Shown here: positions 14,651 to 29,446 of the stretch, in pieces | Position numbering within the stretch: position 1 is the stretch's first letter | How the letters are laid out: each line of letters begins with the position of its first letter | NCBI GenBank assembly: GCA_016177615.1 | Contig: JACOUX010000019.1 | Coordinates: 1-59,965 of the forward strand | Direction of reading: 5' to 3' | Origin: Candidatus Woesearchaeota archaeon | GTDB taxonomy: Archaea > Nanobdellota > Nanobdellia > Woesearchaeales > GW2011-AR4 | DNA length: 59,965 nt | Notes under the pieces: generated by a model | What the model saw: the letters and a program-made list of their open reading frames with translations, nothing else | Databases searched by the model: none | Told to the model about the DNA's origin: nothing | Translations under genes and position numbers: made by a program

Positions 14651-17189
14651 ACTCATCCAGATTTTGTCGGTATTGCATATAGCCTTGGTTATGTCTATGC
14701 TGAAAGAGTTCAGCATTGCCCCTTTAATACTGATTATTGCAGCCCTGTCAATTGATTTTTTCACAGGCTTAAGGACGGGCATGAAAAATCTTGCCTATAT
14801 TCTTGCCTGCCTTTCAGTTTTTCTTCCGCTGCTTTGGCTTTTCCTGCTCTTCCTGCCATTCGCAGTATTCGGGCTGCTGCTGGGAAAAAAGGGATTTGCA
14901 CAGAACTACATAATTGGATTTGTGATGTCTTTTACTCCTACAACAGCCATCTATCTGCTTTCAACATACCTGTCGGTTAGGCTGAGCCTGCCGTTGATTT
15001 TGGCTATATTTTATTTGGCGCCTTTAATTGCTGTATTAATTCTGAAAGGAAAGTTCTTATCAGCATTTGAGCTGGAAAGCAAAGAGGCAGCATTTTTTCT
15101 CATTATCATTTCATTGACAATAATCACCGGGTCGGTCATAATTGACGACAAGAGCTTATTCATGGCAAATGGGGTTAGGGAATTCTCAAGGATGCAGCCT
15201 GCAATTGATGGTTTTAGTAATGGGGCAATTCCAATATATGATCCTTCCACTGGACAGGGGGAAGCAACCTTCCTTTGGATTCCGCCGACATATTCCATTC
15301 ACTTTGCGCTTGGGAATTATTTACTGGACTATTTTCCAAGAATACTTCTTTTCAACTTAAATATCCTTTTCATATTGCTTTTATCTGCAGTGTCGCTTGG
15401 GCTGCTGCTCGACTCAATAATAAGCAGGGAAAAATCGGCATTAGATTGGGTTATATTGGCGCTTGTAACCGCACTTATCGGCCTTAATTTCTTTTTCCTC
15501 CAGTTCCTGGAATCCACAAAGCAGTTCTATTCGTATCCAATGAGCTACCTTTTCCTTGCTATCATAATCTCAAATCCAAGGAAGTTCAATGAATTTTTGA
15601 TCCTCATGTTCATTTCAGCAATCATCATGACAATCCATCCAGCATATGGATTTGGAGTGATTATAATCGGATTTTCTTTGCTCCTTATCACCAAAAGCTA
15701 TTATGTCAGGGACAGAAGCGAGCTTAAAGAATTTTTAAGCTGGGCTCCAGCCAACAAGCTTAAGATTGCCGCAGCCTTGCTTGCCATAGCCTGCCTCCCA
15801 TTGTTTTATTTCCAAAGCTCGATTATTTTCAGCGATTTCTTATATAAAAATCCCGGCCAAAATCCTATATCCGCAAGTACAATCAAAAGCAACGTATTAT
15901 CTTTTTTTGACAGCTTCATCAGGAATGATATAAAAATCCTGTCGCTTAAGTACCCAGATCCAAGCAGGATAGACGACCACAAGACAGGGGCATTTATCTC
16001 AATTTTTGGCGCAGCAGCTTTGATAATATTGCTGGCCGCCTATAAAGTAAAAAGCATTAAAAAATTCAGGATATTCGCTTTTGGATACTTCCTCAGCCTG
16101 CTTATCCTTTCCTTGCTTACTGCAAGCCTGACAGTGGTGCTTGGAGGGCTTTTCAGGACAAACCAGCCTTATTTTTTGGTTTTGATGGGGGCCTCAATCA
16201 TCTCTTTTGTTTTCTTGTTTGAGAATAAATATTTCAGGATTGCATTGGCAGCAGTTATTCTCGCAGCCTTTTTGCATTCACTTCCCCATGCAAGGGAAAA
16301 CCTTGCAAATATACACAGGGAGCAGTTTGCAAGCGGCGAAATTTACAAGAATGAGTTGGATTTCATCAAAAAATTGCCAAATGACGGAAGAATAATGACA
16401 TACGGGCTTTTCGCAAACGCAATTGACTTTGGAGCTCCAAGGCTTACGGGAAAATACTTCTCAAGGGACGAAAGGGAAGAGCTTGCGTCATTTGACAGGA
16501 ATGCCTATGCAAAGATACACGGCCAGAATTCATTTGGAGACCAGAATTATGTGCTGAGCAAGCCAGGTGTGGAAATTGCAAATTATCTTATTCTAGGAGG
16601 ATATAAATATGTCTTTACCAATGCTTGCCACCCTGTCGGAAACTATGTAGCCCTCAACATATATCCTAATTTTTCTCATCCAATTTACCAAAATGAATGT
16701 TTTGTAATATTATTGGTCAATAAGGCGAATTATGCCGAAAAAATTGACTTGTCTTCAAGCGCCGATGATGAAACTTACAGAAAAAATAGTGGCTACAAAT
16801 ATGTTACTATAGGCAATTATTATAATTTTGATTTGGCAGGCATAAATTACAGTAATGACCCAAAAGAGCCGGAAAGCCTGCGCTTCGAAAGGGAAACACC
16901 CACAAAAGTCAGGATATTTGGGGACTTTGATGCAAACGGCTGGGTGGTTTTCAAAGAAAGGCATTTCCCAAGATGGAAGGCATACATGGACGGAAAAGAA
17001 GTTCCTGTTTTCTCCACGAATCATGAGCTGATTTTAATCAAGACAATCAAAGGAAGCAGCATACTGCTGGAATACAAAATTCTCGGCAGGGAGAAAATAT
17101 TCGGAATAGTATCTCTGGCAGGATTTGTCGGATTTATTATACTGCTCCTTGTTTTGCTGAAAAGAGAGATACCAAAACAAGTAATTTAA
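14640..17189 (+). CDS. YfhO-like GT-C membrane glycosyltransferase (second copy)
   Basis: 849 aa with the same layout. C-terminal HFPRWKAYMDGKEVPVF...LLEYK plus a terminal TM anchor matches the YfhO C-terminal signature. Confidence 0.55.
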   Translation: MKIRLIQILSVLHIALVMSMLKEFSIAPLILIIAALSIDFFTGLRTGMKNLAYILACLSVFLPLLWLFLLFLPFAVFGLLLGKKGFAQNYIIGFVMSFTPTTAIYLLSTYLSVRLSLPLILAIFYLAPLIAVLILKGKFLSAFELESKEAAFFLIIISLTIITGSVIIDDKSLFMANGVREFSRMQPAIDGFSNGAIPIYDPSTGQGEATFLWIPPTYSIHFALGNYLLDYFPRILLFNLNILFILLLSAVSLGLLLDSIISREKSALDWVILALVTALIGLNFFFLQFLESTKQFYSYPMSYLFLAIIISNPRKFNEFLILMFISAIIMTIHPAYGFGVIIIGFSLLLITKSYYVRDRSELKEFLSWAPANKLKIAAALLAIACLPLFYFQSSIIFSDFLYKNPGQNPISASTIKSNVLSFFDSFIRNDIKILSLKYPDPSRIDDHKTGAFISIFGAAALIILLAAYKVKSIKKFRIFAFGYFLSLLILSLLTASLTVVLGGLFRTNQPYFLVLMGASIISFVFLFENKYFRIALAAVILAAFLHSLPHARENLANIHREQFASGEIYKNELDFIKKLPNDGRIMTYGLFANAIDFGAPRLTGKYFSRDEREELASFDRNAYAKIHGQNSFGDQNYVLSKPGVEIANYLILGGYKYVFTNACHPVGNYVALNIYPNFSHPIYQNECFVILLVNKANYAEKIDLSSSADDETYRKNSGYKYVTIGNYYNFDLAGINYSNDPKEPESLRFERETPTKVRIFGDFDANGWVVFKERHFPRWKAYMDGKEVPVFSTNHELILIKTIKGSSILLEYKILGREKIFGIVSLAGFVGFIILLLVLLKREIPKQVI

Positions 17190-17214: not shown

Positions 17215-17865
17215 CTACTTTCCCTTCCTAAACGCTTCCCATGTGTCTAAAAACTCCTGTATGGTTTCTGTCGTCCTTGGATTTGTGACCATGTCCCTTA
17301 TGACAGGAGGCGTTATGGTAAGGATATGTGCGCCAGTAAGCATAGCCGCATTCACCTGCGATACCTGCCTGAAGCTTCCTAGGATTATCCTTGACTTCAC
17401 GCTGCTTTCACCAAAAAGCTTGACAGCATCTTCAGCGACTTTTTTCGCGTCATAGCCCATGTCTTCTATCCTTCCCCAGAAAAGGCTTACATAATCAGCG
17501 CCTGCCAAAGCTGCAAGGATGGCCTGCTTTGCAGCCATGCACGCAGTTACATTTGTCTTTATTCCAAGCTCCGAAAGGGTCTTGACGGCTTTCAGGCCAT
17601 TAACATTCATGGGAATCTTGACCACAACATTGCTGCCCCACGAATTGTATTCCTTTGCCTCGCTTATCATTCTGGAAGAATCATTTGTAGTGACTTCTAT
17701 GCTGACAGGCCCTTTTACAAGCTGCAAGATCTCCTTCATCCTCTTCTCGAAATCAACCCCTTCTTTTGCGCAGAGCTTTGGGTTTGTTGTACAGCCTGCC
17801 ACAATGCCCCAGCTAAGAAGCTCTTTCAAATCATCCAATGATGCAGTGTCTGCGAATATTTCCAT
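17215..17865 (-). CDS. tal: Transaldolase / fructose-6-phosphate aldolase (subfamily 3B)
   Basis: MEIFADTASLDD...GCTTNPKL...VVKIP (Schiff-base Lys region); 216 aa is typical of short TalC/Fsa-type enzymes. Confidence 0.9.
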   Translation of the reverse strand: MEIFADTASLDDLKELLSWGIVAGCTTNPKLCAKEGVDFEKRMKEILQLVKGPVSIEVTTNDSSRMISEAKEYNSWGSNVVVKIPMNVNGLKAVKTLSELGIKTNVTACMAAKQAILAALAGADYVSLFWGRIEDMGYDAKKVAEDAVKLFGESSVKSRIILGSFRQVSQVNAAMLTGAHILTITPPVIRDMVTNPRTTETIQEFLDTWEAFRKGK

Positions 17866-17942
17866 TTTTAATATGTCGGAAATATACCATTAATCTATGA
17901 TTGATGGACGTAAGTCCAATGTAGTTGTACAAGATGATATAT

Positions 17943-17970
17943 TTCCGAGCATGCTCAAAAACCACCTGTC
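17943..17970. repeat. Copy A of a 28-nt intergenic motif (TTCCGA-N3-TGCTCAAAAACCACCT-R-TC)
   Basis: 24 of 28 nt identical to 30410-30437, including a 16-nt exact core. A partial inverted copy lies at 18021-18036 and a related GTGGTTTTTGAC at 17191-17202. Confidence 0.5.
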
Positions 17971-17983
17971 TGCACGGGATGGC

Positions 17984-18595
17984 TTACAAGGCTTTCAGCC
18001 CATCATGCCACCCGTCTGTGACGGGTGGTTTTTGACATATTTTTAAATCTTCTACCTTTATCCTTAATGCAGCCTCATAAAGGTCTTTCACAATCTCAGC
18101 CTTAACTTTTTCCTGATGCATAAAATTGAAAACGTCATTTCTTTTAATGCCAATCAAAAATCTTTTGCGGAACGGCAAATCCACTTTTAAGTCGCTCAAA
18201 TTATCCCCGACAGCATATGATTTTCTAACGTCTATTTTAAATTTTTCTATTGATTCATTGAATAGTCCGTGCTTTGGCTTCCTGCAATTGCATTGGCCTG
18301 TAAACTCAGGATGGTGGATACAATTATAGATCGCATCAACTGGCAGCGATTTAAGAATTTTTCTGTCAATCTCTTCGAGGTCTTTTGCCTTTATGTAGCC
18401 GAAAGCCACCCCAGGCTGGTTGGATATCACTATAATCTTAAATCCGGATTGCTTAAGGGTTTTCAAGGCCTTGCCGACTTTAGGAAGAAAGTGAAGCTCT
18501 TTGGCATTCATGGCGCTGTAGATTCCTTTCTCATCATGGTACATCACCTTGTTTATCACACCATCTCGGTCAAGGAAAACTGCCTTTGATTTCAT
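17984..18595 (-). CDS. gmhB: D-glycero-D-manno-heptose 1,7-bisphosphate phosphatase (HAD, GmhB type), copy 1
   Basis: VFLDRDGVIN (HAD motif I) and QCNCRKPK (GmhB Zn/Cys motif). ATG 18595 forms an ATGA overlap with the upstream stop. The C-terminal roughly 20 aa read through a hairpin element. Confidence 0.8.
   Translation of the reverse strand: MKSKAVFLDRDGVINKVMYHDEKGIYSAMNAKELHFLPKVGKALKTLKQSGFKIIVISNQPGVAFGYIKAKDLEEIDRKILKSLPVDAIYNCIHHPEFTGQCNCRKPKHGLFNESIEKFKIDVRKSYAVGDNLSDLKVDLPFRKRFLIGIKRNDVFNFMHQEKVKAEIVKDLYEAALRIKVEDLKICQKPPVTDGWHDGLKAL
18008..18033 (+). terminator. Perfect 9-bp hairpin followed by T5 (intrinsic-terminator-like), embedded in the gmhB 3' end
   Basis: CCACCCGTC-tgt-GACGGGTGG-TTTTT. 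No plus-strand gene lies upstream, so its role is unclear. Confidence 0.35.
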
Positions 18596-19314
18596 TTGCC
18601 CATCTCCTGCCATAGGCTGCTCAATTTTTCCATTGTACCAATCTCCCTGTAGACAATATCATCAGGCATGACATAGCCATAAAGCTTTTTCTTCTCCTTC
18701 AAAAGCAAAGGGAAAAGATCGTATCCAAAATCAAATTTTTTCCTTGGAATGAATTTAAGGACATTAGGCTCAAGAATGTAAATTCCTGCATTAACCAGCC
18801 TGAAGGATTTGGATGACAAATCCGCCTCATCGATATCTGGCCTTTCAATGAACCTTTCGACCCTTAAGTTTTTATTCAAAATGACAGCGCTTGAGCTTTT
18901 CTGGCTGCTATTTTTTTTATGCAGCGCAATAGTTGCGAATGAGCCATTTGACTTATGGAATCTAGCAAGGTCTTCTAAGTCAAGGGTTGTAAAATTGTCG
19001 CCGTAAATCACGATAAACCTGTCATCAAAGAAATCCTCTGCGAGCTTCAAAGCCCCTGCAGTGCCCATTGGCTCTTTCTCGATTGAATATCTTATTTTTA
19101 CACCAAACCTTTTCCCTTCATTGAAATGGCTCATTATCCCTTCAGGCATGTAATGCAGGCACAATAACAGCTCTTTTATGCCGTATTTCCTGAACAATTC
19201 CACCTGATGCTCTATAAGCGGCTTGCCCGCAACCTTGATCATTGGCTTGGGCAAAGAGCTTGTCAATTTCCTCATCCTTTTTCCAAAGCCCCCTGCAAGA
19301 ATTACCCCTTTCAT
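18592..19314 (-). CDS. hddC: Sugar-1-phosphate nucleotidyltransferase, HddC-like (D-glycero-alpha-D-manno-heptose-1-P guanylyltransferase)
   Basis: MKGVILAGGFGKRMRKLT (GxGxR loop) and NAGIYILEP. Sits with gmhA, hddA and gmhB. Confidence 0.7.
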   Translation of the reverse strand: MKGVILAGGFGKRMRKLTSSLPKPMIKVAGKPLIEHQVELFRKYGIKELLLCLHYMPEGIMSHFNEGKRFGVKIRYSIEKEPMGTAGALKLAEDFFDDRFIVIYGDNFTTLDLEDLARFHKSNGSFATIALHKKNSSQKSSSAVILNKNLRVERFIERPDIDEADLSSKSFRLVNAGIYILEPNVLKFIPRKKFDFGYDLFPLLLKEKKKLYGYVMPDDIVYREIGTMEKLSSLWQEMGK

Positions 19315-19318
19315 GGAT

Positions 19319-19930
19319 TTAATCAGAATGCCTTATCTTTTCAATCAGCGCGAATATGATAAGATGGTGAAGCGCTATATGGAATGACTCAACATGAGGG
19401 GTTGAGTCTGCAGGAACAACAATACATGCGTCGCATATCTTCCTGAACATGCCTCCGTCAAATCCGGAAAAGCCGATTGTCTTTGCCCCTTTATCTTTGG
19501 CAAACTTCATTGCCTTTGGCAGGTTTTGGGACCACAAGCCGGCATCACCTGTGCCAGAGCCGCCGTGCACTGAAAACCCGACAACAACATCTCTAGGCTC
19601 TATAAGGTTTTCAAGCTGTCCCGTGAAAAGATTTTCAAACCCGTTGTCATTTGTCCATGCGCTCATAAGGGGAATATTGTCAGTCAATCCTATTGCCTTG
19701 AACCTTTTCTTTCCCGGCACGATAGAGGTCTTTGACAGGTCAGCAGCGAAGTGCGTTGCAGTGGAAGCTGACCCTCCGTTGCCCATTGCATAGACCTTGT
19801 TGCCATTCCTCCATGCCTCAAAAAGAATGTCGATTGCCTTGCTAATGTCTTCTTTCGATGTTTTTTCAATTACCTCGTGCATTTCGGAAAAATATTTTTC
19901 TATGAATTGCAAATTTTCCATTTTCATCAA
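19319..19930 (-). CDS. gmhA: Phosphoheptose (sedoheptulose-7-P) isomerase, SIS domain
   Basis: GNGGSASTATHFAADL and FSVHGGSG motifs, about 200 aa. Confidence 0.85.
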   Translation of the reverse strand: MMKMENLQFIEKYFSEMHEVIEKTSKEDISKAIDILFEAWRNGNKVYAMGNGGSASTATHFAADLSKTSIVPGKKRFKAIGLTDNIPLMSAWTNDNGFENLFTGQLENLIEPRDVVVGFSVHGGSGTGDAGLWSQNLPKAMKFAKDKGAKTIGFSGFDGGMFRKICDACIVVPADSTPHVESFHIALHHLIIFALIEKIRHSD

Positions 19931-20907
19931 ATGTCCAAAACAACCTTAGAGCCCTCAAAATCGAACCCGAAGCGCATCTCCTTTAAGCCTTTTTCTGCCA
20001 TTGCCTTTCTGAGGCCGGATTTGGCGCCGTCGCAGTAAAACATGAAAAATCCCCCTCCGCCTGCTCCCATTATCTTCCCTCCCATGGCCCCGCTTTTTAT
20101 GGCAGCATTATAGCACTCGTCTATAAATCCGTTCGATACCCTGCTTGATATTTTTTTCTTCGCGTTCCAGTGCACGTCAAGCATCTCCCCGAATCCTTTG
20201 GTGTTTCCCGACTCAAGACATTTTTTTGTCTTGATCGCTATCTCCTTGATTTTATGAAGATAGTCAACAGCATTCCCGCTTTCCTGGACAGACTTGTTTT
20301 GCTCTGAAAGCACATAAGATGACGGCCTTCTTATGCCGGTATAGAAAAGAAGGATATTATTTTCCAGCTCTTCCAGGGCATCACGAGCGATTTTCAGAGG
20401 AGTGACTGTAACTTTTCCGCTGCTGTCAAATTCAAGGCACTTTAAGCCCCCAAAAGATGCCATGTACTGGTCCTGCTTTCCGATAGGCTCCTTCAATATG
20501 TTTATCTCTATCCTGCAGGCTTCTTCAGCAATCTCATGGTTTGTTATATGCTCCCTTTTATGCGCGTGAATAGCCCTTAAAAGCCCAACAAGGAAGCTGC
20601 TGGAAGTTCCAAGGCCGCTGTTTGAAGGCACATCAGCCAATGATGTAATCTCAATTCCATCTGTGATTCCGAAAAGCCTGAGGCTCTCCCTCACTGTTGG
20701 ATGCTGCAACTCATCAACATTATTAACGGTCTCTGTCTTTGAGTATTTGACCTGAAGTCCGCTTTCGAACATCTTTGTAAGAGTCACATAAATATATTTG
20801 TTTATGGCCCCTGCAAGAAGAAAGCCATTATGCTTTGAATAATAGGATGCTAAGTCAGTGCCGCCTCCTCCAAGTGATATCCTTACAGGGGTCCTTGTTA
20901 TTATCAT
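19927..20907 (-). CDS. hddA: GHMP kinase, HddA-like (D-glycero-alpha-D-manno-heptose-7-P kinase)
   Basis: RISLGGGGTDL N-terminus, GHMP motif II VPSNSGLGTSSS and GAGGGGF motif III. ATGA overlap with gmhA. Confidence 0.75.
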   Translation of the reverse strand: MIITRTPVRISLGGGGTDLASYYSKHNGFLLAGAINKYIYVTLTKMFESGLQVKYSKTETVNNVDELQHPTVRESLRLFGITDGIEITSLADVPSNSGLGTSSSFLVGLLRAIHAHKREHITNHEIAEEACRIEINILKEPIGKQDQYMASFGGLKCLEFDSSGKVTVTPLKIARDALEELENNILLFYTGIRRPSSYVLSEQNKSVQESGNAVDYLHKIKEIAIKTKKCLESGNTKGFGEMLDVHWNAKKKISSRVSNGFIDECYNAAIKSGAMGGKIMGAGGGGFFMFYCDGAKSGLRKAMAEKGLKEMRFGFDFEGSKVVLDI

Positions 20908-20933
20908 AGAATCAGAGTAATAAATAACGCAAT

Positions 20934-22091
20934 TTAAACGTTTTGTTTCTCAGTAACAGGAATGGGAAATTCAGGCTTGTTTGCAGCGCCGTTGAACAGC
21001 TTTCTCGCCTTCAAGTCTGCGTACTTCACTGCTGCCTTGGCAAGCTGCTTGGGGTTAAACAGGACATTTGTGGATAATTGGCACTCGAAGGTGCAGAAGC
21101 ATTTTGTGTCCTTTATGTCCTTTCTAAGGGCTCCTGATGCTTCGTTGAGCCATATTTTTCTAAGATCATAATCGACATCCTTTAAGTTTCCCATCTTGCT
21201 GTCAGCCCTTATCTCGCATGCAAATACATCTCCTGTGGGATAGATAATTCCGTTTGTGATTCCAGCATAGCATGGGCTTTGGTACTTGCCTGTTTCAAAT
21301 GTCCTGACAAGCATGTCCCTGAAGACAAGGTTTGTTGCAGTATATAAATCTCCACCAAGAACCTTATAGCCCCCTATCTTGCCTTCCCTGATTTTTTTTT
21401 CTGTTTCTGCAAGCAGCTCCTTGTAGTGCTTGAGTGAATCCCCTGAAAGCTTTGCGCTTTTTGGCTTGCCCCTAAGCATGTTTATCTGAAAAAAATCAAC
21501 CTTGTATGTGTCTGTTATATAGTCAAACACTTCTTTTATTGAGGAGTCATTCTCCCCTGTCAGTGTGCATATGATTCCCACATCAAGCCTGCTGTATTTT
21601 TTCTTCAGCTCCAGAAGGCCCTTCAATGTTTCCATTGATTTTGAGAAGCACCCCTCCATTCCCCTTATCTGCTCATGCAGCTTTTCAGAGCCGTCGATTG
21701 AAACGCTTATATGCAGGTACAAGCCATGATTTTCCGACATTATCCTGTCCACTTTCTCAAGAGTCAATTTTGTCAGTGTGCCGTTTGTCGGGATTGATGC
21801 TATCCTCATTCCTGAATTTACCCTGAAATAATGTATGATCTTGTCTATGTCCTGCCGGAGAAAAGGCTCTCCTCCTGTAAATCCAACGTTGATGAGGTTG
21901 CTGACACTTTTAGTGAGCTTTTCGATATTATGGAGGTCGATTTCATTTTTCTTGTTAAGTTCTTCCCAATAAAAACAGTGGCTGCACTTGAGATTGCACC
22001 TGTCCGTCACATAGAAAATAAGATAGACCGGCATCTGTTTTTTTTTGTAAAATACGGTTTTGAGATGCTTTAAGTCTTGGAGTTCCAGCAT
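20934..22091 (-). CDS. Radical SAM enzyme with C-terminal SPASM/twitch-like Cys cluster
   Basis: CNLKCSHCF (CX3CX2C) near the N-terminus. C-terminal cysteines lie in SPCYAG, FACE and CFCTFEC. Confidence 0.8.
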   Translation of the reverse strand: MLELQDLKHLKTVFYKKKQMPVYLIFYVTDRCNLKCSHCFYWEELNKKNEIDLHNIEKLTKSVSNLINVGFTGGEPFLRQDIDKIIHYFRVNSGMRIASIPTNGTLTKLTLEKVDRIMSENHGLYLHISVSIDGSEKLHEQIRGMEGCFSKSMETLKGLLELKKKYSRLDVGIICTLTGENDSSIKEVFDYITDTYKVDFFQINMLRGKPKSAKLSGDSLKHYKELLAETEKKIREGKIGGYKVLGGDLYTATNLVFRDMLVRTFETGKYQSPCYAGITNGIIYPTGDVFACEIRADSKMGNLKDVDYDLRKIWLNEASGALRKDIKDTKCFCTFECQLSTNVLFNPKQLAKAAVKYADLKARKLFNGAANKPEFPIPVTEKQNV

Positions 22092-22094
22092 TTT

Positions 22095-23117
22095 CTATCC
22101 CCTGTTGCTAGGCCAATTGCAGTTTAAATATATTTCTGCTGCCTTTTTGCCTTCAAACGCGATGTTGAGCATTGATTTTATAAGGGCAAGATTTCCAAAA
22201 ATGGCCGATTTCAGGAAAGGGGTTGTGATATATAAAACTATCATCATAGTAATGTAAATGATTCCGTATATTAATGACACATATGAAATCCCTATGAAAA
22301 TGCCAAAAAGCAGGATAAAAAACAGAAAAGGCTGTAGGATGTATATTCCCAATTCAAAAGGATATATGGCCATGCCGAAAAGGCCGTATTTTGGATTGAA
22401 CAGCACGTCGCGGTTGCTCAGCATAACCAAAATCAGTCCAGTGCCCCTCCTTTCTTTCTGGGAACTGAGATCCTTGATAGATCTTAGTGATTCCTCGTAA
22501 AAAACGCATTCGCTTATGTATTTTACTTTATATCCCAGTTTCCTTATCTTTATTGCTATGTCTGTGTCGTCATAGAATGTGCCTATTTTCATCATGAGTT
22601 TTTTTTTCACAATCATGAACTGGCCGTGGAACACAGGTGCAGAGTCCAGTCTTGATTCCATCAGCCTTAATTTGGTGTAAAATTTCCTATAAGAGTCTTC
22701 AACACTAAAAGCATTGTGGCTTTGGCTCTTCGCCACAAGATTTTGGATGCCGCATACTGCTCCTATTTCATCGCTTGAGATATGTGGAATTGCTTTTTTC
22801 AATATGTCCTTTTTAAGCATGACGTCTGCATCTGTAATTGCGAATAAATCATGCCTTGCATAGCTTAAGGCCGTATTGACGCAGCCGACCTTTCCTTTTT
22901 GCTGCTTGTTTCGGACCAGCCTCACATTGCTGAACCTTGAGCAATATTTTTTTGCGATTTCCAAAGAATTGTCATTCGAGAAATCATCAACCAAAAGGAC
23001 ATCAAAGCAGTTTTTTGGGTAATCAAGGGCAAGAGTGTTCTCAATTTTCCTTGAAATTATCTTTTCTTCATTGAAAAACGGAATGGCTATTGTAAACTTT
23101 GGGATGCTCATTTTCAT
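22095..23117 (-). CDS. Membrane-anchored GT2 glycosyltransferase (processive synthase-like)
   Basis: IAIPFFNEE...LVDDFSNDNS...TDADV plus a QKERR (QxxRW-like) motif and C-terminal TM helices. Confidence 0.8.
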   Translation of the reverse strand: MKMSIPKFTIAIPFFNEEKIISRKIENTLALDYPKNCFDVLLVDDFSNDNSLEIAKKYCSRFSNVRLVRNKQQKGKVGCVNTALSYARHDLFAITDADVMLKKDILKKAIPHISSDEIGAVCGIQNLVAKSQSHNAFSVEDSYRKFYTKLRLMESRLDSAPVFHGQFMIVKKKLMMKIGTFYDDTDIAIKIRKLGYKVKYISECVFYEESLRSIKDLSSQKERRGTGLILVMLSNRDVLFNPKYGLFGMAIYPFELGIYILQPFLFFILLFGIFIGISYVSLIYGIIYITMMIVLYITTPFLKSAIFGNLALIKSMLNIAFEGKKAAEIYLNCNWPSNRG

Positions 23118-24622
23118 GCTATTATCTTTGCATCTACAAGCTGGGCATTCTCCTGAGTATTTTCTTCTGCATCAAACGAGACGAGCTGGTATCTGTTGAA
23201 GCTTATGTTTCTCTTCTCCTTAACCCTGTTTTCCTGGTGGTATCTGTAGTGCTCAATTCCCATGCTTGTATATTTTTCCGACAGCTCTATGTCTTTGTCC
23301 AGGATCATGTTAAAAGCTTCAGCGTTGCACAGCTGGTTATAGCTGTAGCCTTCATATTTTTTAATCTCATCTTCATATTCTTTTATCCCCATCTCTGCGT
23401 TTAAGTACCATGGGAATATCATCCAGTACCTCATCAGAGTGTCGTTGCTTATTGTAGGCAGGTTAAGGACAGGCTCGAAATTCCATACATTTGCCTCTTT
23501 TCCGTTGAACAGGCCGTTTTTTTGGCAGTAGTCAAAAAGATCGGTGCCCTTGACAGGAATCAAAAAAGTCGGCCTCAGCAAGGTTGGCCTTACTTTGGCA
23601 ATCAGCGAGATTGTATCATTTAAAGTGCTTTCATCCTCTCCTGGGATTCCAAAGATAATATAGGCATAGCTCCTGATGCCGTATTTCCTGCAAAGCCCAA
23701 AGCCTTTAACTATCTTATCATAGTTCAGCTGCTTTTTCACAAAGTCAAGCAGCTTCTGGCTTCCTGTCTCAAGGCCAAACTGGATTTCCCTGCAGCCGCT
23801 GTCAGCAAGTGCCTTGGCTGTAACATCAACCAAAGTGTCAAGCCTTGACTCAATGCAGTATTGTATCCCGTAAACATCATAAATCTCTTTTTTGTACGCT
23901 GAAGTGAAGTCCATCAGCCATTTGAAGTTAAGGGTGAACAGGTCATCATCGAAATTGAATACCTTGACAGGAAATTTGCTTACAAGATATTTGAGCTCTT
24001 CTACTATCTTATCAACATTCTTTCTCCTGACGATATAGTAATTCTTCGCCTCATGTATTCTTGGGACTCCGCAGAAAGTGCATTTGTATGGGCATCCCCT
24101 TGAAAGCGGAAGGTTTAGCCACCCGTTTTTTGTGCCGATGATAGTGGCCATGTCAAGCAAATCCCAGTCTGTCATCGGCAGTGTGTTTATGTCTTCCACA
24201 GGCTTGCCATGGATTATTCCTTTTGCCTCAAGAAGCCCTTTGGCCATCTCCGAAAAGACTATCTCTCCATCTCCGACGACAAAAGCATCAAAGTTGGAGC
24301 CATTAAACTCATGCGGCGCAATGGTCGCATGAACTCCTCCAAGTATGATCGGCACCTTAATGCCATGGCTTTTCAGATATCCTGCAATCTGGTTGCTTCT
24401 TGTAAACTCAAAGGAAGTGCACGTGAACCCAATGATATCCGGGTTAAATTCCTTAATATCCTGCAGAATTACAGCGTCATTGTCAACAACGCCATTCTCG
24501 TTGTTTATGTGTATAACGCCAACCTTGTGGCCTTCGCTCTTCAACACAGCAGAAATAGCCTGCAAAGCAGGAGAATGGGCTATAGGGGAATACATATTAG
24601 GATAAATAAATAATATTCTCAT
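23114..24622 (-). CDS. B12-binding-domain radical SAM enzyme (class B, methyltransferase-like)
   Basis: N-terminal Rossmann-like cobalamin-binding domain (MRILFIYPN...GFTCTS...GGVHAT) followed by RGCPYKCTFC (CX3CX2C). Confidence 0.85.
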   Translation of the reverse strand: MRILFIYPNMYSPIAHSPALQAISAVLKSEGHKVGVIHINNENGVVDNDAVILQDIKEFNPDIIGFTCTSFEFTRSNQIAGYLKSHGIKVPIILGGVHATIAPHEFNGSNFDAFVVGDGEIVFSEMAKGLLEAKGIIHGKPVEDINTLPMTDWDLLDMATIIGTKNGWLNLPLSRGCPYKCTFCGVPRIHEAKNYYIVRRKNVDKIVEELKYLVSKFPVKVFNFDDDLFTLNFKWLMDFTSAYKKEIYDVYGIQYCIESRLDTLVDVTAKALADSGCREIQFGLETGSQKLLDFVKKQLNYDKIVKGFGLCRKYGIRSYAYIIFGIPGEDESTLNDTISLIAKVRPTLLRPTFLIPVKGTDLFDYCQKNGLFNGKEANVWNFEPVLNLPTISNDTLMRYWMIFPWYLNAEMGIKEYEDEIKKYEGYSYNQLCNAEAFNMILDKDIELSEKYTSMGIEHYRYHQENRVKEKRNISFNRYQLVSFDAEENTQENAQLVDAKIIA

Positions 24623-24681
24623 ATTAAAGGCTAAGCAGCCCTATAAGTTTATAAATATTTTGAAAATTAACGATAGTTAAC

Positions 24682-25404
24682 TCAATCCACGAACCTGTAC
24701 TTAATAATCGCCCAGAGCGACCTGAACCCGTCTCTTGCTATGTGGACTTTCTTTCCTTCCATAAACGACCTTGAGCTGTAGCTTACAGGGACTTCAACAG
24801 GCTTTATTCCTTTTTTAAGCAGCTTGGATATTATTTCCGCATCCAGCTCAAACCCTGTTGACTTGAACTTTATCCCTTTTATGGAATTCCTTGTAAATAC
24901 CTTGTACATTGTCGCTATGTCAGTCATCTTGACTCCGTAAAGAATGAGGTATGTTAGATTAAATATCAGCCCGCCATAGTTCAAAACAAGAGAAGACATC
25001 TTGTCCCCTTTTAACGCCCTTATTTTCCAATGGCCCCTCTTTAATGTCCTTGAGCCAAGCACAAACTCTGTTTTGCCCTCAGCTATCGGCTTTATCAGCC
25101 TTTTGTAGTCATTGACATCATATTCAAGGTCGGCATCCTGTATGATTATTATGTCGCCTGTTGCATTGCTCATGCCAATCCTGACTGCGCTTCCTTTTCC
25201 ATTGGCTTTTTTTTCAAAAATCACCTTTGTGCCGGACATTTTTCTGTATTTTCTCGCAATTTCCCTGCAGCCGTCAGTTGAATTGCTCTCAACGATAATT
25301 ACCTCTTTTTTGGCGCTTCCCAAGTCTACATTGTAAACCCTTCTGATAATCTCTGGAAATGTTTTTGCCTCGTTATAAACCGGAATTATTATCGAAACCT
25401 TCAT
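24682..25404 (-). CDS. GT2 glycosyltransferase (soluble, Dpm1/GtrB-like catalytic domain), tandem paralog A
   Basis: VSIIIPVYNEAKT...IIIIQDADLEYD. Roughly half the positions match the neighbouring paralog on visual alignment. Confidence 0.85.
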   Translation of the reverse strand: MKVSIIIPVYNEAKTFPEIIRRVYNVDLGSAKKEVIIVESNSTDGCREIARKYRKMSGTKVIFEKKANGKGSAVRIGMSNATGDIIIIQDADLEYDVNDYKRLIKPIAEGKTEFVLGSRTLKRGHWKIRALKGDKMSSLVLNYGGLIFNLTYLILYGVKMTDIATMYKVFTRNSIKGIKFKSTGFELDAEIISKLLKKGIKPVEVPVSYSSRSFMEGKKVHIARDGFRSLWAIIKYRFVD

Positions 25405-25406
25405 TT

Positions 25407-26105
25407 TCAGTTGAGAAACCTGTACTTTACAAGATAAAATGCCGCCTTAAGGCCGTCAACCCACGTAATTTTCTTGCCTTCATCAAATTTCCTGCCGAAA
25501 AACTTTATCGGCACTTCGTGTATCTTATAGCCGTTCTTGAGGATTTTTGCCGTTATCTCAGGCTCAAAGTCAAACCTTTTTGACTTCAATATTATTTTTT
25601 TTAGCACTTCCCTTTTGATCACCTTATAGCCTGTTTCCATGTCTGTGATTTTTGCGCCGTACAAGGCATTTGTCATGAATGTCAGAAGCAGATTGCCAAG
25701 GTAATGCAGTTTATACATCTTATTCAGATTTTTCTTTATTGCCTGAAGCCTCGACCCATACACTACATCTGCTTCTCCCTTGATTATGGGAGCTAAAAGC
25801 CTTGGATACTCGCTTGGGTCATATTCAAGGTCGGCATCCTGTATCAATATTATGCCGCCTGTTGCCTTTTCAAGCCCTGTCCTGATTGCAGTCCCCTTTC
25901 CCATATTTCTTGGATGAAGCAATATTTTTATCCGGCTATCGCGGATTCTTTTCAAGATGTCTCTTGTCCCGTCGCCTGAGAAGTCGTCAACAATTATCAG
26001 CTCTTTGGATGCTTCTTTTAATTTTACATTCTTTACTTTTTCAATAACATCCCTTATGGTCTTTGCTTCGTTGTAGACTGGAATTATAATGGACAGCTTT
26101 TCCAT
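25407..26105 (-). CDS. GT2 glycosyltransferase, tandem paralog B
   Basis: LSIIIPVYNEAKT...IIVDDFSGDGT...ILIQDADLEYD. Confidence 0.85.
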   Translation of the reverse strand: MEKLSIIIPVYNEAKTIRDVIEKVKNVKLKEASKELIIVDDFSGDGTRDILKRIRDSRIKILLHPRNMGKGTAIRTGLEKATGGIILIQDADLEYDPSEYPRLLAPIIKGEADVVYGSRLQAIKKNLNKMYKLHYLGNLLLTFMTNALYGAKITDMETGYKVIKREVLKKIILKSKRFDFEPEITAKILKNGYKIHEVPIKFFGRKFDEGKKITWVDGLKAAFYLVKYRFLN

Positions 26106-26136
26106 CAGAAATTAAAACTTAAAATCGTTTAAAAAA

Positions 26137-26634
26137 CTATTGATTTCTGTAAACGCTCAGGATTCTGCTTATGACTTTTGTTGTCGAATATTCCTTCTCC
26201 ATCTTCGCTATTACAATTTTCCCCCCATTATTTTCAACAATGCCTTTTTCCAAGATTTCGCTTGGGCTGTAATCGCCCCCTTTTGAGTGGACATTCGGCT
26301 TTATTTTTGACAGCCAGCTTCTTGGATCAGGTTCCCTGAACGTGAAGATATAATCGACGCTTTCCAGCCCAGCCAAAACACCCATTCTTGATTTCTCATT
26401 GTTGATTGGCCTCTTGTCACTTTTGAACTGCTTGACAGAAGAATCAGAATTTATGCCCACTATCAGTATATCGCCCAGCCTTTTTGCCTCCTCAAGGTAC
26501 TTTACATGCCCGAGGTGCAGGATGTCAAAAACCCCGTTTGTGGTAACAATTTTTTTGTTTTCCTTTTTCAGCCTTTTGGCTATTTTGATAATTTCTCCCA
26601 AAGTCTTGATTTTATCGCTTATTGCCATTTTCAA
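26137..26634 (-). CDS. hldC: D-beta-D-heptose-1-phosphate adenylyltransferase (stand-alone RfaE/HldE domain II)
   Basis: TTNGVFDILHLGHVKYLEEAK (HxGH cytidylyltransferase-fold motif); 165 aa. Confidence 0.8.
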   Translation of the reverse strand: MKMAISDKIKTLGEIIKIAKRLKKENKKIVTTNGVFDILHLGHVKYLEEAKRLGDILIVGINSDSSVKQFKSDKRPINNEKSRMGVLAGLESVDYIFTFREPDPRSWLSKIKPNVHSKGGDYSPSEILEKGIVENNGGKIVIAKMEKEYSTTKVISRILSVYRNQ

Positions 26635-27154
26635 AGTTCTCTATAATCCACTTAGCGGCATCCAGCAGGTCTCTTGCGGCATAATCAGGATGAACTTCAT
26701 TTTTCGCATTGCTTCCATAGCCAGTCATGACATGAATTGTCCTGCACCCTGCATCCCTTCCCATCTCGAAATCGCTTTTCCTGTCCCCTATGACAAAAGA
26801 CTTCTGCAGATCCACATTAAACTCCTCTTCTGCCTGTTTCAGAAGCTTGATTTTCGGCTTTCTGCAATCGCAGTTGTCATCAGGCTTGTGCGGGCAGTAA
26901 TAAGTCTTTGCAATTGATATTCCGTTCTTTTTCAATTCATCCAGGACCCTTTTATTGTAATTAAAAAAATCCTCAAGCTTGTAGTATCCCCTTCCTATTC
27001 CGGACTGGTTTGTGATAAAAAATAATTTATAATCCTTGAGCACTTTAAGCCCTTCAATTGCGTTTGGAATCAGCTTAAAGTCCTCTATCCTGTGCACATA
27101 TCCTATGTCCTCTGTCACGACCCCATCACGATCCATGAAAATAGCCGGCATCAT
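26612..27154 (-). CDS. gmhB: D,D-heptose 1,7-bisphosphate phosphatase (GmhB), copy 2
   Basis: IFMDRDGVV and DNCDCRKPK motifs; 180 aa. Confidence 0.85.
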   Translation of the reverse strand: MMPAIFMDRDGVVTEDIGYVHRIEDFKLIPNAIEGLKVLKDYKLFFITNQSGIGRGYYKLEDFFNYNKRVLDELKKNGISIAKTYYCPHKPDDNCDCRKPKIKLLKQAEEEFNVDLQKSFVIGDRKSDFEMGRDAGCRTIHVMTGYGSNAKNEVHPDYAARDLLDAAKWIIENFENGNKR

Positions 27155-28125
27155 AAGTCCTTAATCTCCTTTTTTATTTCATCAATGCTCACCGTTGCCG
27201 TGCCTATCTTGCCTACTTTTATGCCAGCTGCAATATTTGCAATGACAGCGGCGTCCTTCAGGCTGGCGCCCGAGGCCATCGCAAGGGCAATTGCAGCAAC
27301 AACAGTGTCGCCTGCCCCAATCAGGCTATAAACTTCCCTTGCTTTTGTTGGAATGTGGGTTATGCTTCCGCCTGGCTCAAATAAGGACATTCCTTTTTCC
27401 CCCCTGGTGACAAGCACACTTGTGTTCAGCTGCTTCAGAAGCCTGTTGCCGATTTCTATTACTGCTTCGTCACTTCCGTCTTCAATCCCCGCCATTTCAG
27501 ATGCTTCGGCATTATTTGGAGTTATCAAGGTTACATTTGAATAGAAATCCCTGTGCTTCGGCTTTGGGTCAACAATTATGGGCTTATTGAGTTTATTGCA
27601 TAATTCAATTGCCTTGCTGCCGATTTCCCTTGTAATTACTCCCTTTGCATAATCAGAAATGACCACTACATCCATGTCTTTTACGCTTCTTTCCAGAAAT
27701 TTTATTATCAGCGTCTCAACTTTTTTGTGCACGTGCTCTTTGTTCTCGTAATCAACCCTCAAAAGCTGCTGGCTCCTGCCTATCACCCTTATTTTCTGCG
27801 TCGTTGGCTTATCGCTGTCAGTAACAATTCCATCGGTAGTTATGCCCTTTTTTTTGAGCTCTTTAAGGAGAATGGCCTTTGCGCTGTCATTTCCGGCAAT
27901 GCCCACCATGACAGCCCTGCCGCTCAACGCAGAAATATTGTTGGCGACATTTGCTGCGCCCCCTGCCTCATAAGTTTCCCTAATCACATTTACCACCTGC
28001 ACTGGCGCCTCTGGGCTTATCCTTGAAACGTCGCCCCATATGTACTTGTCAAGCATTATGTCGCCTATGACCAGGATATTCTTGTTTTTGAAATTCTCCA
28101 GGATTTTCAGCAGCATTTGCTTCAT
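27151..28125 (-). CDS. hldA: D-beta-D-heptose-7-phosphate kinase (stand-alone RfaE/HldE domain I, PfkB family)
   Basis: ILVIGDIMLDKY N-terminus, GGAANVA and the IGAGDTVVA PfkB signature. Confidence 0.85.
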   Translation of the reverse strand: MKQMLLKILENFKNKNILVIGDIMLDKYIWGDVSRISPEAPVQVVNVIRETYEAGGAANVANNISALSGRAVMVGIAGNDSAKAILLKELKKKGITTDGIVTDSDKPTTQKIRVIGRSQQLLRVDYENKEHVHKKVETLIIKFLERSVKDMDVVVISDYAKGVITREIGSKAIELCNKLNKPIIVDPKPKHRDFYSNVTLITPNNAEASEMAGIEDGSDEAVIEIGNRLLKQLNTSVLVTRGEKGMSLFEPGGSITHIPTKAREVYSLIGAGDTVVAAIALAMASGASLKDAAVIANIAAGIKVGKIGTATVSIDEIKKEIKDL

Positions 28126-29033
28126 TTGATTTCACCCTTTTCAATAATCAGCCTGTGCAGCGTAGGTATTGTCTTTTCATGCCTTCCAATGATCATAAAT
28201 CCCTTTCCGCCTAATGAAATCGGCCTTGTCACAACATTTTCCCTTGGCCTGTAATGGTCAATCATGTCAAAGTTCGCAGCTGTGACGTTTTCAATTTTAT
28301 GCCCCAGATTTCTTGCGATTGTCAGTGCTTTTAAGAATACCTCAGGCAGGATTACTGCACACCCAACGTTTAAAATAATTCCCTCTTCAAGCTTGCTAAC
28401 GTTTTCAGTGAAAATCTTGAAATCCTGATATGAAGTTTTCCCGATTGCAGCCCCGTCGCAGCTCGGATGCTGGTGCACAATGTCGGTTCCGATTGCTATA
28501 TGCACAGTAACTGGAATCTTCAGCCTGTATGCATTGTACAAAATGCTGCATTCCTTGTTTGGCAAATTCAAGTCATTTATTTTTTTGCCGATAGCGTATC
28601 CCGCTCCAAAATTATTTTTTGCCCCTTCTTTCAGCGCGTCATTGAGAATTCGTCCGGTTTCCTCGGTCATTCCGAATGTTCCGTCTTCAATTGTTTGCTC
28701 GACATACTCTGAAGTTTCCCCTATTAATGCCAATTCAAAATCATGTATCGGGCCTGCGCCGTTCATAGCAACATGCTTTATTATCCCTTTTTTCATCAGG
28801 TCTATGACAAGAAAGCTCATTCCGGTCTTGATGACATGCGCACCCATCATGAGGATTATCTCCTTCTTCCTGACATGAGCATTGATTATTCTGTACACTA
28901 AATCATTCAATTCTATAGAATCCATTAAAATCTCGGAGTTTTCTGGCTTAATCAAATCACTTAGCCTTACCTTGTTCTTTCTCTGCCTTATGGGGATTGT
29001 CTTGATTTTGTTGAAGTCCAGCATTTTAATCAC
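28122..29033 (-). CDS. Deoxyhypusine-synthase-like (DHS/sirtuin-like Rossmann) family protein, function unknown
   Basis: MMGAHVIKTGMSFLVIDLMKKGIIKHVAMNGAGPIHDFE and IPVTVHIAIGTD follow the DHS-fold pattern (mobile Gly-rich segments, VxxxGxxxxD). Recognised from memory only. Confidence 0.45.
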   Translation of the reverse strand: MIKMLDFNKIKTIPIRQRKNKVRLSDLIKPENSEILMDSIELNDLVYRIINAHVRKKEIILMMGAHVIKTGMSFLVIDLMKKGIIKHVAMNGAGPIHDFELALIGETSEYVEQTIEDGTFGMTEETGRILNDALKEGAKNNFGAGYAIGKKINDLNLPNKECSILYNAYRLKIPVTVHIAIGTDIVHQHPSCDGAAIGKTSYQDFKIFTENVSKLEEGIILNVGCAVILPEVFLKALTIARNLGHKIENVTAANFDMIDHYRPRENVVTRPISLGGKGFMIIGRHEKTIPTLHRLIIEKGEIK

Positions 29034-29446
29034 TTGAATATTTCTTCATTTAATCTTCTTGCAGGCCGCAGCTTTACATTATCATCATTGTCAGTTGTTG
29101 ATATTTCCAAAACAGTGCTTTTTGGCACTAATGATTTGAACGTATGAATCACCCTTGGCTCCAGCCTGAATTTGTCGCCTTTCTCCAAAACAATTGTGCT
29201 GGCAGGAGCATCTAATCCGCTTGCATAAGTGAGAGAGACCTTGCCTTCAATGACAACAAACGTCTCGTCTTTGCGCTCATGATAATGCCAGCTTGACTCG
29301 AACCCCTCGTGCAAAATCAAAAGCTTATTGCAGTACTTTTCGTTGTTCTCAATCCACAGCTCATAGCCCCAAAGATGGTCGTGCCTCTCGCCTTTAAACC
29401 CTGCCAAAAATTTAACATGCTCCTCTTTGAATTTTTTCTCTGACAT
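29030..29446 (-). CDS. Cupin-domain protein (sugar isomerase/epimerase-like)
   Basis: ESSWHYHERKDETFVVIEGKV...RLEPRVIHTF matches the two-motif cupin signature; 138 aa. First gene of the operon. Confidence 0.75.
   Translation of the reverse strand: MSEKKFKEEHVKFLAGFKGERHDHLWGYELWIENNEKYCNKLLILHEGFESSWHYHERKDETFVVIEGKVSLTYASGLDAPASTIVLEKGDKFRLEPRVIHTFKSLVPKSTVLEISTTDNDDNVKLRPARRLNEEIFK

Follow-up and report, generated by a model that had tools for sequence, protein, structure and literature searches.

Why would a single archaeal glycosylation locus hold genes for two routes of heptose activation, and what would the heptose be used for? The question arises from contig JACOUX010000019.1 of a Candidatus Woesearchaeota assembly (GCA_016177615.1), of which a stretch of 59 965 nt is referred to here as the window. 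A string of co-directional genes on its minus strand, between positions 29446 and 17215, contains two modules, each of which probably converts sedoheptulose-7-phosphate (sedoheptulose-7-P) to a nucleotide-activated D-glycero-D-manno-heptose that feeds a surface glycan. Module 1 (29446-26137) would be the lineage's own ADP-heptose (beta-anomer) route. Module 2 (20907-17215), here also called the alpha cassette, would use a GHMP kinase, an SIS protein, a second GmhB and a nucleotidylyltransferase (NTase) to make an NDP-alpha-heptose, probably the GDP form. The initial annotation of this DNA had proposed that two heptose routes adjoin each other in a glycosylation locus of an archaeon, and curated family models, the relatives of the kinases and conserved synteny agree in supporting this. 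It had called both routes complete, which does not hold in that form, as a shared GmhA or a cupin acting as second isomerase is needed to complete them.

The ORF (open reading frame) listing of the window confirmed 14 tightly packed, co-directional ORFs on the minus strand from 29446 to 17984, followed, as had been noted, by a transaldolase/fructose-6-phosphate aldolase (FSA) gene of 216 amino acids (aa) at 17865-17215 after a 118-nt gap. Reading the junctions directly gave six overlaps in total, with the remaining intergenic gaps within the string measuring 2-59 nt. ATGA start/stop overlaps were found at 28125/28122, 27154/27151, 23117/23114 and 18595/18592; the third was absent from the earlier list, and the last relies on an internal ATG of the ORF starting at 18613. 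Two of the five overlaps previously given as ATGA-type are of other kinds: 29033/29030 is GTGA, with an alternative ATG start at 29024 that would leave a 5-nt gap, and 19930/19927 is TTGA, where an alternative ATG start would give a 1-nt overlap. The peptide motifs quoted earlier were all recovered in the translations, namely GNGGSASTATHFAADL, SNSGLGTSSS, LAGGFGKRMRKL and DRDGVIN/CNCRKPK, together with GAGDTVVA, DRDGVV/CDCRKPK and GVFDILHLGH.

The string is compact enough for an operon, and co-directionality and overlaps favour the one expression unit that had been described. Against this, a T6 run lies directly after the HldC stop codon, and AT-rich TATA-like sequence occurs in gaps of 31, 59 and 118 nt, the latter two preceding the B12-binding radical S-adenosylmethionine (SAM) gene and the transaldolase gene respectively. 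These features could split the string into sub-operons, and for this reason a single transcript is plausible rather than established. A promoter and terminator scan of the string, which models bacterial signals, returned counts no better than those in shuffled sequence.

Table 1. Predicted features of the gene string and its surroundings in the window, with the scores and motifs on which each assignment rests
Feature	Position	Strand	Evidence
Cupin metalloprotein, leading gene	29030-29446	-	Cupin_2 34.8 bits; Lyx_isomer 32.4 bits
GSU2086-family protein, deoxyhypusine synthase (DHS)-like NAD-binding fold	28122-29033	-	NF052581 415.7 bits (cut-off 250)
HldA, PfkB heptose-7-P kinase	27151-28125	-	TIGR02198 376.7 bits (cut-off 345); ribokinase 98.5
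GmhB-type heptose-1,7-bisphosphate 7-phosphatase (HAD-IIIA), copy 1	26612-27154	-	NF006506 164.6 bits (cut-off 178); TIGR00213 135.1 (cut-off 149.6)
HldC heptose-1-phosphate adenylyltransferase	26137-26634	-	TIGR02199 184.9 bits (cut-off 181.5); likely start ATG 26628
GHMP kinase, HddA family (D-glycero-D-manno-heptose-7-P kinase, alpha-anomer route)	19927-20907	-	NF049969 196.9 bits (cut-off 600); PDB matches
GmhA-like SIS isomerase, divergent	19319-19930	-	TIGR00441 107 bits (cut-off 209.45)
Sugar-1-phosphate NTase	18592-19314	-	PF00483 140.7 bits
GmhB-like HAD-IIIA phosphatase, copy 2	17984-18613	-	NF006506 118.7 bits (cut-off 178); TIGR00213 95.1 (cut-off 149.6); likely start ATG 18595
Short transaldolase/FSA-family enzyme	17215-17865	-	PF00923 160 bits; TIGR00875 212.5 (cut-off 245.95)
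Glycosyltransferase family 2 (GT2) enzyme GT2a, AglJ/Dol-P-sugar-synthase-like	25407-26105	-	PF00535 131.5 bits; AglJ TIGR04182 125 bits, below cut-off
GT2b, second AglJ-like GT2	24682-25404	-	Found only in alpha-cassette lineages
B12-binding radical SAM enzyme	23114-24622	-	PF02310 and PF04055; no NCBIfam cut-off reached
GT2c, membrane-anchored	22095-23117	-	PF00535, PF13641, PF13632; C-terminal hydrophobic segment
Radical SAM/SPASM protein	20934-22091	-	PF04055 and PF13186; no curated family cut-off reached
Divergent NTase-like-domain protein	29499-30329	+	PF00483 over residues 92-242 only; RHH_1 E 0.11
GT9 heptosyltransferase-family enzyme	32548-33687	-	PF01075 138.7 bits; TIGR02195 115.5 (cut-off 134.6)
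AglB (STT3) oligosaccharyltransferase	34756-37860	-	PF02516 122.3 bits; WWDFG at residue 663; at least 11 hydrophobic segments
Second GT9	6481-7503		PF01075 54.9 bits
Polytopic membrane protein, GT-C-like topology	12254-14650	+	798 aa
Polytopic membrane protein, GT-C-like topology	14640-17189	+	849 aa

Families were assigned from NCBIfam curated equivalog cut-offs, Pfam gathering scores and sequence matches in PDB (Table 1). For the beta module, the PfkB kinase was predicted to be HldA, as had been suggested, since it lies above the curated cut-off and does not group with ribokinase; residues 9-321 align to TIGR02198 positions 2-314 of 315, and its closest relatives, at 70-76 % identity, come from groundwater metagenome-assembled genomes labelled Candidatus Woesearchaeota or Nanoarchaeota. 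The cytidylyltransferase-fold enzyme likewise matches HldC above the curated cut-off, with HLGH and YSTT motifs and Burkholderia HldC (5X9Q, 1e-31) as best PDB match. Between them lies the first copy of GmhB, whose position is kept in relatives. A nucleophile motif (DRDGV) and a zinc loop (CxH...CxC) are both present in it, and its scores come near the curated cut-offs but miss both, so that the earlier GmhB call is probable. An (F/L)XXGRSTT signature, termed STTR5, has been associated with HldC enzymes whose products include CDP- and UDP-heptose (PMC11573728). The corresponding motif here is MEKEYSTT, with Tyr at position 5 in place of the STTR5 Arg, which places the enzyme outside the promiscuous subclass and makes ADP the likelier nucleotide.

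The distribution of the beta module was determined by a scan of one genome per species, viewing 10 kb each side of a match. Among the matches listed, approximately 18 Woesearchaeota-type genome loci carry the module in the same order, AglB-GT2-GT9-(divergent NTase-like gene)-[GmhA or cupin]-[HldD or GSU2086]-HldA-GmhB-HldC, and the same block is found in approximately 25 metagenome loci. Some of the genome loci are labelled 'uncultured Methanosarcinales', yet their synteny is identical. In most loci reaching that far an AglJ-like GT2 follows HldC, and large membrane proteins are nearby in several. In a rough neighbour-joining tree (midpoint-rooted, without support values), 21 archaeal HldA sequences were monophyletic, with a Vulcanimicrobiota bacterium HldA, itself preceded by a GSU2086 gene, as sister. 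These patterns indicate that the beta pathway is an established trait of the lineage and not a one-off transfer, and its fixed place beside AglB and GT9 appears to be the best available clue to the purpose of archaeal heptose. Insertions were seen within some of these loci: free-standing LAGLIDADG_2 homing-endonuclease ORFs between HldA and GmhB in two (L012:4770-5249 and L034:10941-11942) and a DUF1643 gene between cupin and HldD in another (L019).

Which enzymes would supply heptose-7-P to HldA and finish the ADP-heptose depends on the first two genes of the string, which the initial annotation had passed over and where related loci differ. Across 19 archaeal loci, the window included, the first slot holds GmhA in 11 and a cupin in 8, never both. 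The second slot, directly upstream of HldA, holds HldD or a GSU2086-family protein, and again never both, over 19 genome loci and 23 metagenome loci. The slot-1 GmhA of sister loci scores 210.8 and 221.6 bits against the TIGR00441 cut-off of 209.45, and slot-2 HldD scores 285, 280 and 273 bits against the TIGR02197 cut-off of 274.6, within 1.3 bits of it or above.

A metagenome scan with the cupin family returned 80 loci, and GmhA was present within 6 kb of the cupin in none of the 80. In approximately 25 of them the cupin directly precedes GSU2086 or HldD, followed by HldA-GmhB-HldC, often after AglB-GT9. Three loci (L123, L124 and L143) contain in-frame HldA-cupin fusions, the HldA part of L123 scoring 317.8 bits, and one (L171) has the order HldE-cupin-GmhB. 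The family comprises two subtypes that are approximately 35 % identical, with H54, H56, K59, D60, E61, H101 and E114 invariant. Its profile can be aligned over almost the entire length of the D-lyxose/D-mannose isomerases 2Y0O (39.5 bits) and 7NZO, with H, H, K, E, H and E conserved within shared HxH...K-ETF...H...E-S motifs, and the L-ribose isomerases 5AVP and 3WW1 align almost over the full length with the same motifs. The cupin differs from these isomerases in being much shorter, without two insertions of approximately 6 and 21 residues, and in its presumed substrate, a phosphorylated heptose. GmhA chemistry on sedoheptulose-7-P converts a fructose-type ketose to a manno-type aldose, and the fructose/mannose-type ketose/aldose stereochemistry of the isomerases matches the pair sedoheptulose-7-P/manno-heptose-7-P.

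The similarity is weak at 30-40 bits, a range in which generic cupins score similarly. Over the whole protein PF07385 gives 32.4, above its gathering score of 20.8, though without any one significant stretch, and a single-sequence AlphaFold2 (AF2) model had a pLDDT of 34 and no usable fold. Distant homologues also occur in unrelated contexts (L144 and L166). On the strength of the exchange with GmhA in its slot, the fusions to HldA and the isomerase alignment, the cupin is nevertheless a good candidate for an analogous sedoheptulose-7-P isomerase replacing GmhA. A separate metagenome locus (L172:5902-7233) contains a stop-free 444-aa ORF matching both the cupin (179.6 bits) and HldD (505 bits), either a fusion or a sequencing error.

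The GSU2086-family protein in the second slot is 77-86 % identical to Woesearchaeota- and Nanoarchaeota-labelled proteins and belongs to a family of at least approximately 500 clusters at 50 % identity (E < 1e-30) in bacteria and archaea. A sequence search of the protein against PDB found no match, and the DHS-like fold was seen via the family profile and a predicted structure. The AF2 model (pLDDT 94.3) had as best Foldseek matches DHS, the AgrE/ArgZ C-terminal domain and an LOR/SDH-type protein, at a moderate level of similarity (TM 0.5-0.6, 13-17 % identity). DHS and the AgrE domain both employ NAD+ for a transient oxidation, as does the HldD mechanism. Elsewhere the family is fused to GmhA (P0302), an HldA-like kinase (P0247), HldC (P0257; L123), a whole HldE (P0359) and HAD domains. 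In Geobacter sulfurreducens, GSU2086 is flanked by hldE and gmhA, and the transposon-fitness phenotypes of the three genes are similar (PMC5585712). Taken together, these observations suggest a candidate NAD-dependent heptose-pathway enzyme that fills or varies the HldD step.

A role confined to heptose is opposed by three stand-alone bacterial GSU2086 homologues located away from heptose genes, and more than one function may therefore be present in the family. In two bacterial loci (L089:6001-7203, from a hot-spring metagenome, and L090:6001-7226, labelled Thermodesulfovibrionales), a homologue lies between rpsT and a 63-64-aa 2x[4Fe-4S] ferredoxin gene, with class II fructose-bisphosphate aldolase nearby and no heptose genes in view, a conserved setting at odds with a purely heptose-linked role. 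GSU2086 was also considered as a substitute for GmhA and rejected, as six archaeal loci and Geobacter have both, and P0302 is a fusion of the two. Literature searches returned no DHS-like or cupin enzyme in heptose synthesis; the 'isomerase' fold of the actinobacterial tridomain synthetases was outside this comparison. We tentatively propose that the first two genes encode unrecognized NDP-heptose enzymes, the cupin a sedoheptulose-7-P isomerase and GSU2086 a non-SDR (short-chain dehydrogenase/reductase) counterpart of HldD or the maker of another epimer. If so, two self-sufficient routes would be present here, the ADP-heptose pathway would have enzymes missed by annotation, and genome surveys by GmhA and HldD alone would undercount heptose producers.

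In the alpha cassette, the HddA model was the top NCBIfam match of the GHMP kinase, over the full length. Its best PDB matches were the heptose-7-P kinases 3K85, 4USK (WcbL) and 4N3O (E 1e-45 to 1e-50), compared with 1e-20 for fucokinase and 1e-8 for galactokinase, so that by sequence it clearly belongs with the solved heptose-7-P kinases. The top PDB matches of the SIS protein were all phosphoheptose isomerases, the best being Campylobacter jejuni GmhA (1TK9, 1e-28), and the second GmhB copy has the DRDGV motif and the CxH...CxC zinc loop of the GmhB/HisB type. The transaldolase passes PF00923 and falls below TIGR00875, and transaldolase and fructose-6-phosphate aldolase activity are indistinguishable by sequence here. 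The product of transaldolase is sedoheptulose-7-P, of which this enzyme is the likely source. Because a transaldolase of this kind is always part of the cassette, its constant membership would lend independent support to heptose processing by the cassette.

Several observations weigh against a straightforward GDP-heptose assignment. The kinase and phosphatase of module 2 fall below the HddA and GmhB equivalog cut-offs (Table 1), and HMM (hidden Markov model) scores cannot separate alpha- from beta-specific GmhB. The SIS protein, far under its cut-off, has a 9-residue insertion and an Asp (HFAADL) in place of the catalytic Glu of GmhA, with the His retained. The cassette copies in related loci (L085:7804-8409, L086:9368-9970 and L087:10999-11616) share HF[AT][AC]DL and the insertion HGGSGxGDAGxWSQN, indicating that archaeal and bacterial cassette SIS proteins form a distinct subfamily. 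Given the substitution, the insertion and the low GmhA score, its product could be another heptose-7-P epimer than that of GmhA. For the NTase, Arch_glmU and mannose-1-phosphate (Man-1-P) guanylyltransferase models score approximately 130 bits, HddC is fifth-best (NF049965, 105 bits against a cut-off of 300), and in PDB the UDP-glucose pyrophosphorylases (UGPases) and GDP-mannose pyrophosphorylases (1e-40 to 1e-32) rank ahead of HddC 5XHW (1.5e-22). The NTase is a constant cassette member, and from this context it is presumed to act on heptose-1-P; with its similarity not of the HddC type, GDP as the alpha-route nucleotide would likewise follow from context.

The initial calls for this gene set therefore fare unequally. 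The HddA-type kinase keeps its heptose-7-P kinase relatives, as opposed to galactokinase, while missing the equivalog cut-off; GmhA, in a divergent form, and GmhB are probable by PDB matches and by motifs respectively, but below the curated thresholds; and the HddC label does not hold. The low module-2 scores (HddA 197/600, GmhA 107/209 and HddC 105/300) and the resemblance of the NTase to Man-1-P and Glc-1-P enzymes are what would be expected if the cassette were instead a hexose or 6-deoxyhexose salvage route of the fucokinase/GDP-fucose pyrophosphorylase or galactokinase kind, with the SIS and HAD proteins serving unrelated chemistry. We consider this very improbable, as the kinase matches three heptose-7-P kinases over its full length far better than fucokinase or galactokinase, the SIS protein finds only phosphoheptose isomerases at the top of its matches, and a 7-phosphatase-type HAD and a transaldolase, useless for such a route, are fixed members in both domains.

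A different reading accepts heptose as the substrate but reduces the two routes to one branched supply line, in which the SIS protein is the sole sedoheptulose-7-P isomerase for both kinases, the cupin and GSU2086 act downstream in tailoring, for example as epimerases of heptose phosphates or ADP-heptose, and the cassette yields a tailored heptose not linked to GDP. The string has one SIS-type isomerase, the only copy of SIS-type GmhA in it, and the altered catalytic residue of its subfamily and the NTase unlike HddC would both fit. So would the B12 radical SAM gene, which always accompanies the archaeal cassette, and the SPASM gene, which is missing in L092 but accompanies it in the other three related contigs; in this reading the radical SAM enzymes would C-methylate, deoxygenate or epimerize the cassette heptose. 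Cupins of the RmlC type, moreover, act as NDP-sugar epimerases. The cupin of this string, however, aligns with aldose-ketose isomerases and not with RmlC-type epimerases, and it is found fused to HldA, the kinase that would take the isomerase product. Furthermore, cupin-type sister loci and approximately 25 metagenome loci have no GmhA within 6-10 kb, whereas GmhA-type loci have it at exactly the position of the cupin. On balance a single supply line appears unlikely, and two modules that each activate heptose remain the preferred interpretation.

The occurrence of the alpha cassette differs from that of the beta module. It was found within 10 kb in none of the 18 genome loci, and on this basis it is an accessory addition in a sublineage; the related archaeal lineages that have it number at least five. 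Four other archaeal-type contigs encode kinase homologues at 65-85 % identity. In two of these (L085 and L086) the string is complete, (GSU2086)-HldA-GmhB-HldC-GT2(s)-B12 radical SAM-GT2-SPASM radical SAM-kinase-SIS-NTase-HAD-transaldolase, and L086 runs on into archaeal membrane-protein genes. The other two (L092 and L093), being short, reach over the cassette end alone, L092 without the third GT2 and the SPASM gene. Bacterial-looking polysaccharide loci also hold the cassette, with kinase homologues at 62-63 % identity and cassette proteins at 36-63 %, in the order SDR-NTase-kinase-SIS-HAD-transaldolase followed by amine oxidase, methyltransferases, flippase, GT4, and Wzz or Wzy. The transaldolase directly follows the HAD gene in archaeal (L085, L086 and L092) and bacterial (L087, L088 and L094) loci alike. 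This suggests a mobile cassette of five genes, transaldolase included, common to archaea and bacteria.

Bacterial relatives at 36-63 % identity, in a window of metagenome origin, raise the question of whether a bacterial cassette was joined to an archaeal contig by assembly or binning. Identical DNA was found in contigs from four other sequencing runs, one an independent 11.4-kb contig that spans both modules and three partial, and for this reason the juxtaposition did not arise by accident in assembly. Other samples, among them L086 with its archaeal membrane-protein genes, show the genes in the same order at 65-85 % identity, and the guanine-plus-cytosine content is even across the region (0.40-0.435). 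The probability of a chimera is accordingly regarded as negligible.

Between the two modules lie three GT2 genes and two radical SAM genes (Table 1). GT2a, at 59-71 % identity, follows HldC in most related loci extending there and is absent within range in L006 and L009. The B12-binding radical SAM enzyme, a probable methyltransferase or sugar-modifying enzyme, is linked to the alpha cassette in all four related archaeal contigs (L085, L086, L092 and L093) and is 79-80 % identical to the L085 and L086 copies. No protein of the block is better conserved than the SPASM protein, which is 84-89 % identical to its counterparts in L085 and L086 and in this exceeds the heptose enzymes. It is speculative that the soluble, AglJ/DPM1-like GT2a and GT2b load dolichol phosphate with sugars for the GT-C-like proteins. 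GT2 enzymes usually use alpha-linked donors, which leaves the pairing of individual transferases with heptoses as guesswork and counts as a further point against a fully resolved scheme.

Built on the family assignments, synteny, fusions and conservation described above, the following scheme predicts enzyme activities, anomers, nucleotides, transcript structure and the final glycan. The transaldolase would supply sedoheptulose-7-P. In module 1, the cupin, the module-2 SIS protein or both would isomerize it to heptose-7-P, HldA would phosphorylate O-1 in the beta configuration, the first GmhB copy would remove the 7-phosphate and HldC would add AMP to give ADP-heptose, with the GSU2086 protein, in the place of HldD, probably modifying the heptose or the ADP-heptose. 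Module 2 would deliver the second, alpha-anomeric donor. GT9 would use the ADP-heptose, the B12 and SPASM radical SAM enzymes would tailor sugars, and the three GT2 enzymes, GT9, the GT-C-like proteins and AglB would assemble a heptose-containing surface glycan, most likely dolichol-linked and N-linked, which AglB would transfer to protein once finished.

The surroundings of the string are consistent with this scheme. It lies within a glycosylation island of approximately 38 kb (193-37860) containing GT2, GT4, two GT9 and PMT_2-type GT-C proteins, a formyltransferase, a PIG-L deacetylase and a methyltransferase. The GT9 genes and AglB said to flank the string were borne out by their PF01075 and PF02516 matches. 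AglB has the STT3 domain, a WWDYG-type motif in the form WWDFG and a polytopic N-terminal half. Both GT9 proteins belong to the family by PF01075, below the equivalog cut-offs for heptosyltransferases I, II and III, and the copy nearest AglB, which keeps its place beside AglB and the beta module in approximately 18 genomes, is the likely user of ADP-heptose. An STT3 role had also been considered for the large membrane proteins adjoining the transaldolase and was rejected, as these ORFs gave no STT3 signal at E = 5.

These two membrane proteins had no Pfam or NCBIfam match, even at E = 5. They contain 11 and 15 hydrophobic segments respectively, plus a large soluble domain, and homologues are found near HldC/GT2a in seven loci (L006, L007, L008, L013, L014, L018 and L034), while the homologue in L086 has a weak YfhO match. 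This suggests an undescribed family of GT-C-type glycosyltransferases. The divergent NTase-like protein upstream of the string is conserved at 62-79 % identity in the same position in most related loci. Its N-terminal glycine-rich loop is gone (LLKGEH instead of LAGGxG), and with a possible ribbon-helix-helix ahead of the NTase-like domain it may be a candidate sugar-nucleotide-sensing regulator.

The markers in the window are archaeal, comprising AglB/STT3, GatD, GatE, an ATP-dependent DNA ligase, Cdc48 with an intein and an intron-type tRNA, and together with the HldA relatives they indicate a groundwater DPANN archaeon of the Woesearchaeota type. The Cdc48/AAA ATPase gene (41092-45111, plus strand) is split by an intein with a LAGLIDADG_3 endonuclease domain. 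A 107-nt tRNA (53129-53235, plus strand) was found by the Rfam covariance model at 50.8 bits and missed by ARAGORN in bacterial mode, which fits an intron-containing archaeal tRNA. A Fic/DOC-family gene (50361-51284, plus strand) lies a few kb after gatD (46235-47551) and directly before gatE (51291-52745).

The fixed ADP-heptose/AglB/GT9 order leads to the hypothesis that archaeal heptose enters a dolichol-linked or N-linked surface glycan, to which a sublineage would add a second, alpha-anomer route. DPANN cells are ultra-small and probably host-attached, and their attachment is likely to depend in part on surface glycans. The ADP-heptose pathway is studied as an antibacterial target, and ADP-heptose is an agonist of ALPK1 in innate immunity.

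Heptose in archaea is not without precedent, and the novelty given to such a glycan in the initial annotation was overstated. Archaeal NDP-heptose enzymes active in vitro have been reported (Tang et al., Science 2024, as summarized in PMC11461863 and PMC11573728), and these summaries describe the role of heptose in archaea as unknown. The beta module would be one such isomerase/kinase/phosphatase/NTase set making ADP-heptose. The alpha route, the cupin and GSU2086 are not mentioned in the summaries, and the AglB/GT9 synteny described here points to glycan assembly. The N-linked glycan of Thermoplasma acidophilum contains heptose (PMC11407970) and is a precedent for a heptose-bearing archaeal surface glycan, although in a different phylum.

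Compared with the bacterial ADP-heptose route, the same HldA and HldC models are passed and those of GmhB nearly so, a GT9 is linked, the HldA/HldC split is laid out as in Burkholderia (5X9Q being the best PDB match), and in sister archaeal loci all five enzymes are encoded, bona fide GmhA and HldD among them. The differences are a cupin in the GmhA slot, a DHS-fold GSU2086 protein in the HldD slot, an HldC without STTR5 and an archaeal host that has no lipopolysaccharide (LPS), in which the synteny with AglB makes a dolichol-linked glycan the probable acceptor.

Campylobacter jejuni, Yersinia pseudotuberculosis and Burkholderia pseudomallei hold both ADP- and GDP-heptose routes. As proposed for this archaeon, both anomeric routes are present in one organism and serve different glycoconjugates. 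In those bacteria, however, they lie in separate loci (lipooligosaccharide/LPS versus capsule) with one shared GmhA, whereas here they form one co-directional string. The GDP-heptose route, described in C. jejuni (PMC10680097), has the same four enzyme classes as the alpha cassette, whose kinase is closest to the HddA/WcbL type. The cassette departs from it in an NTase nearer to Man-1-P guanylyltransferases and UGPases, a distinct SIS subfamily and a transaldolase as fixed fifth member, and in archaea it is preceded by a B12 radical SAM gene and usually by GT2 and SPASM genes, both missing in L092. Individually the enzymes belong to known families; what appears to be new is that a single gene string of an archaeon combines the two routes, that ADP-heptose genes are linked with AglB and GT9 throughout the clade, that archaea and bacteria share a cassette with a transaldolase in it, and that two candidate analogous enzymes have emerged.

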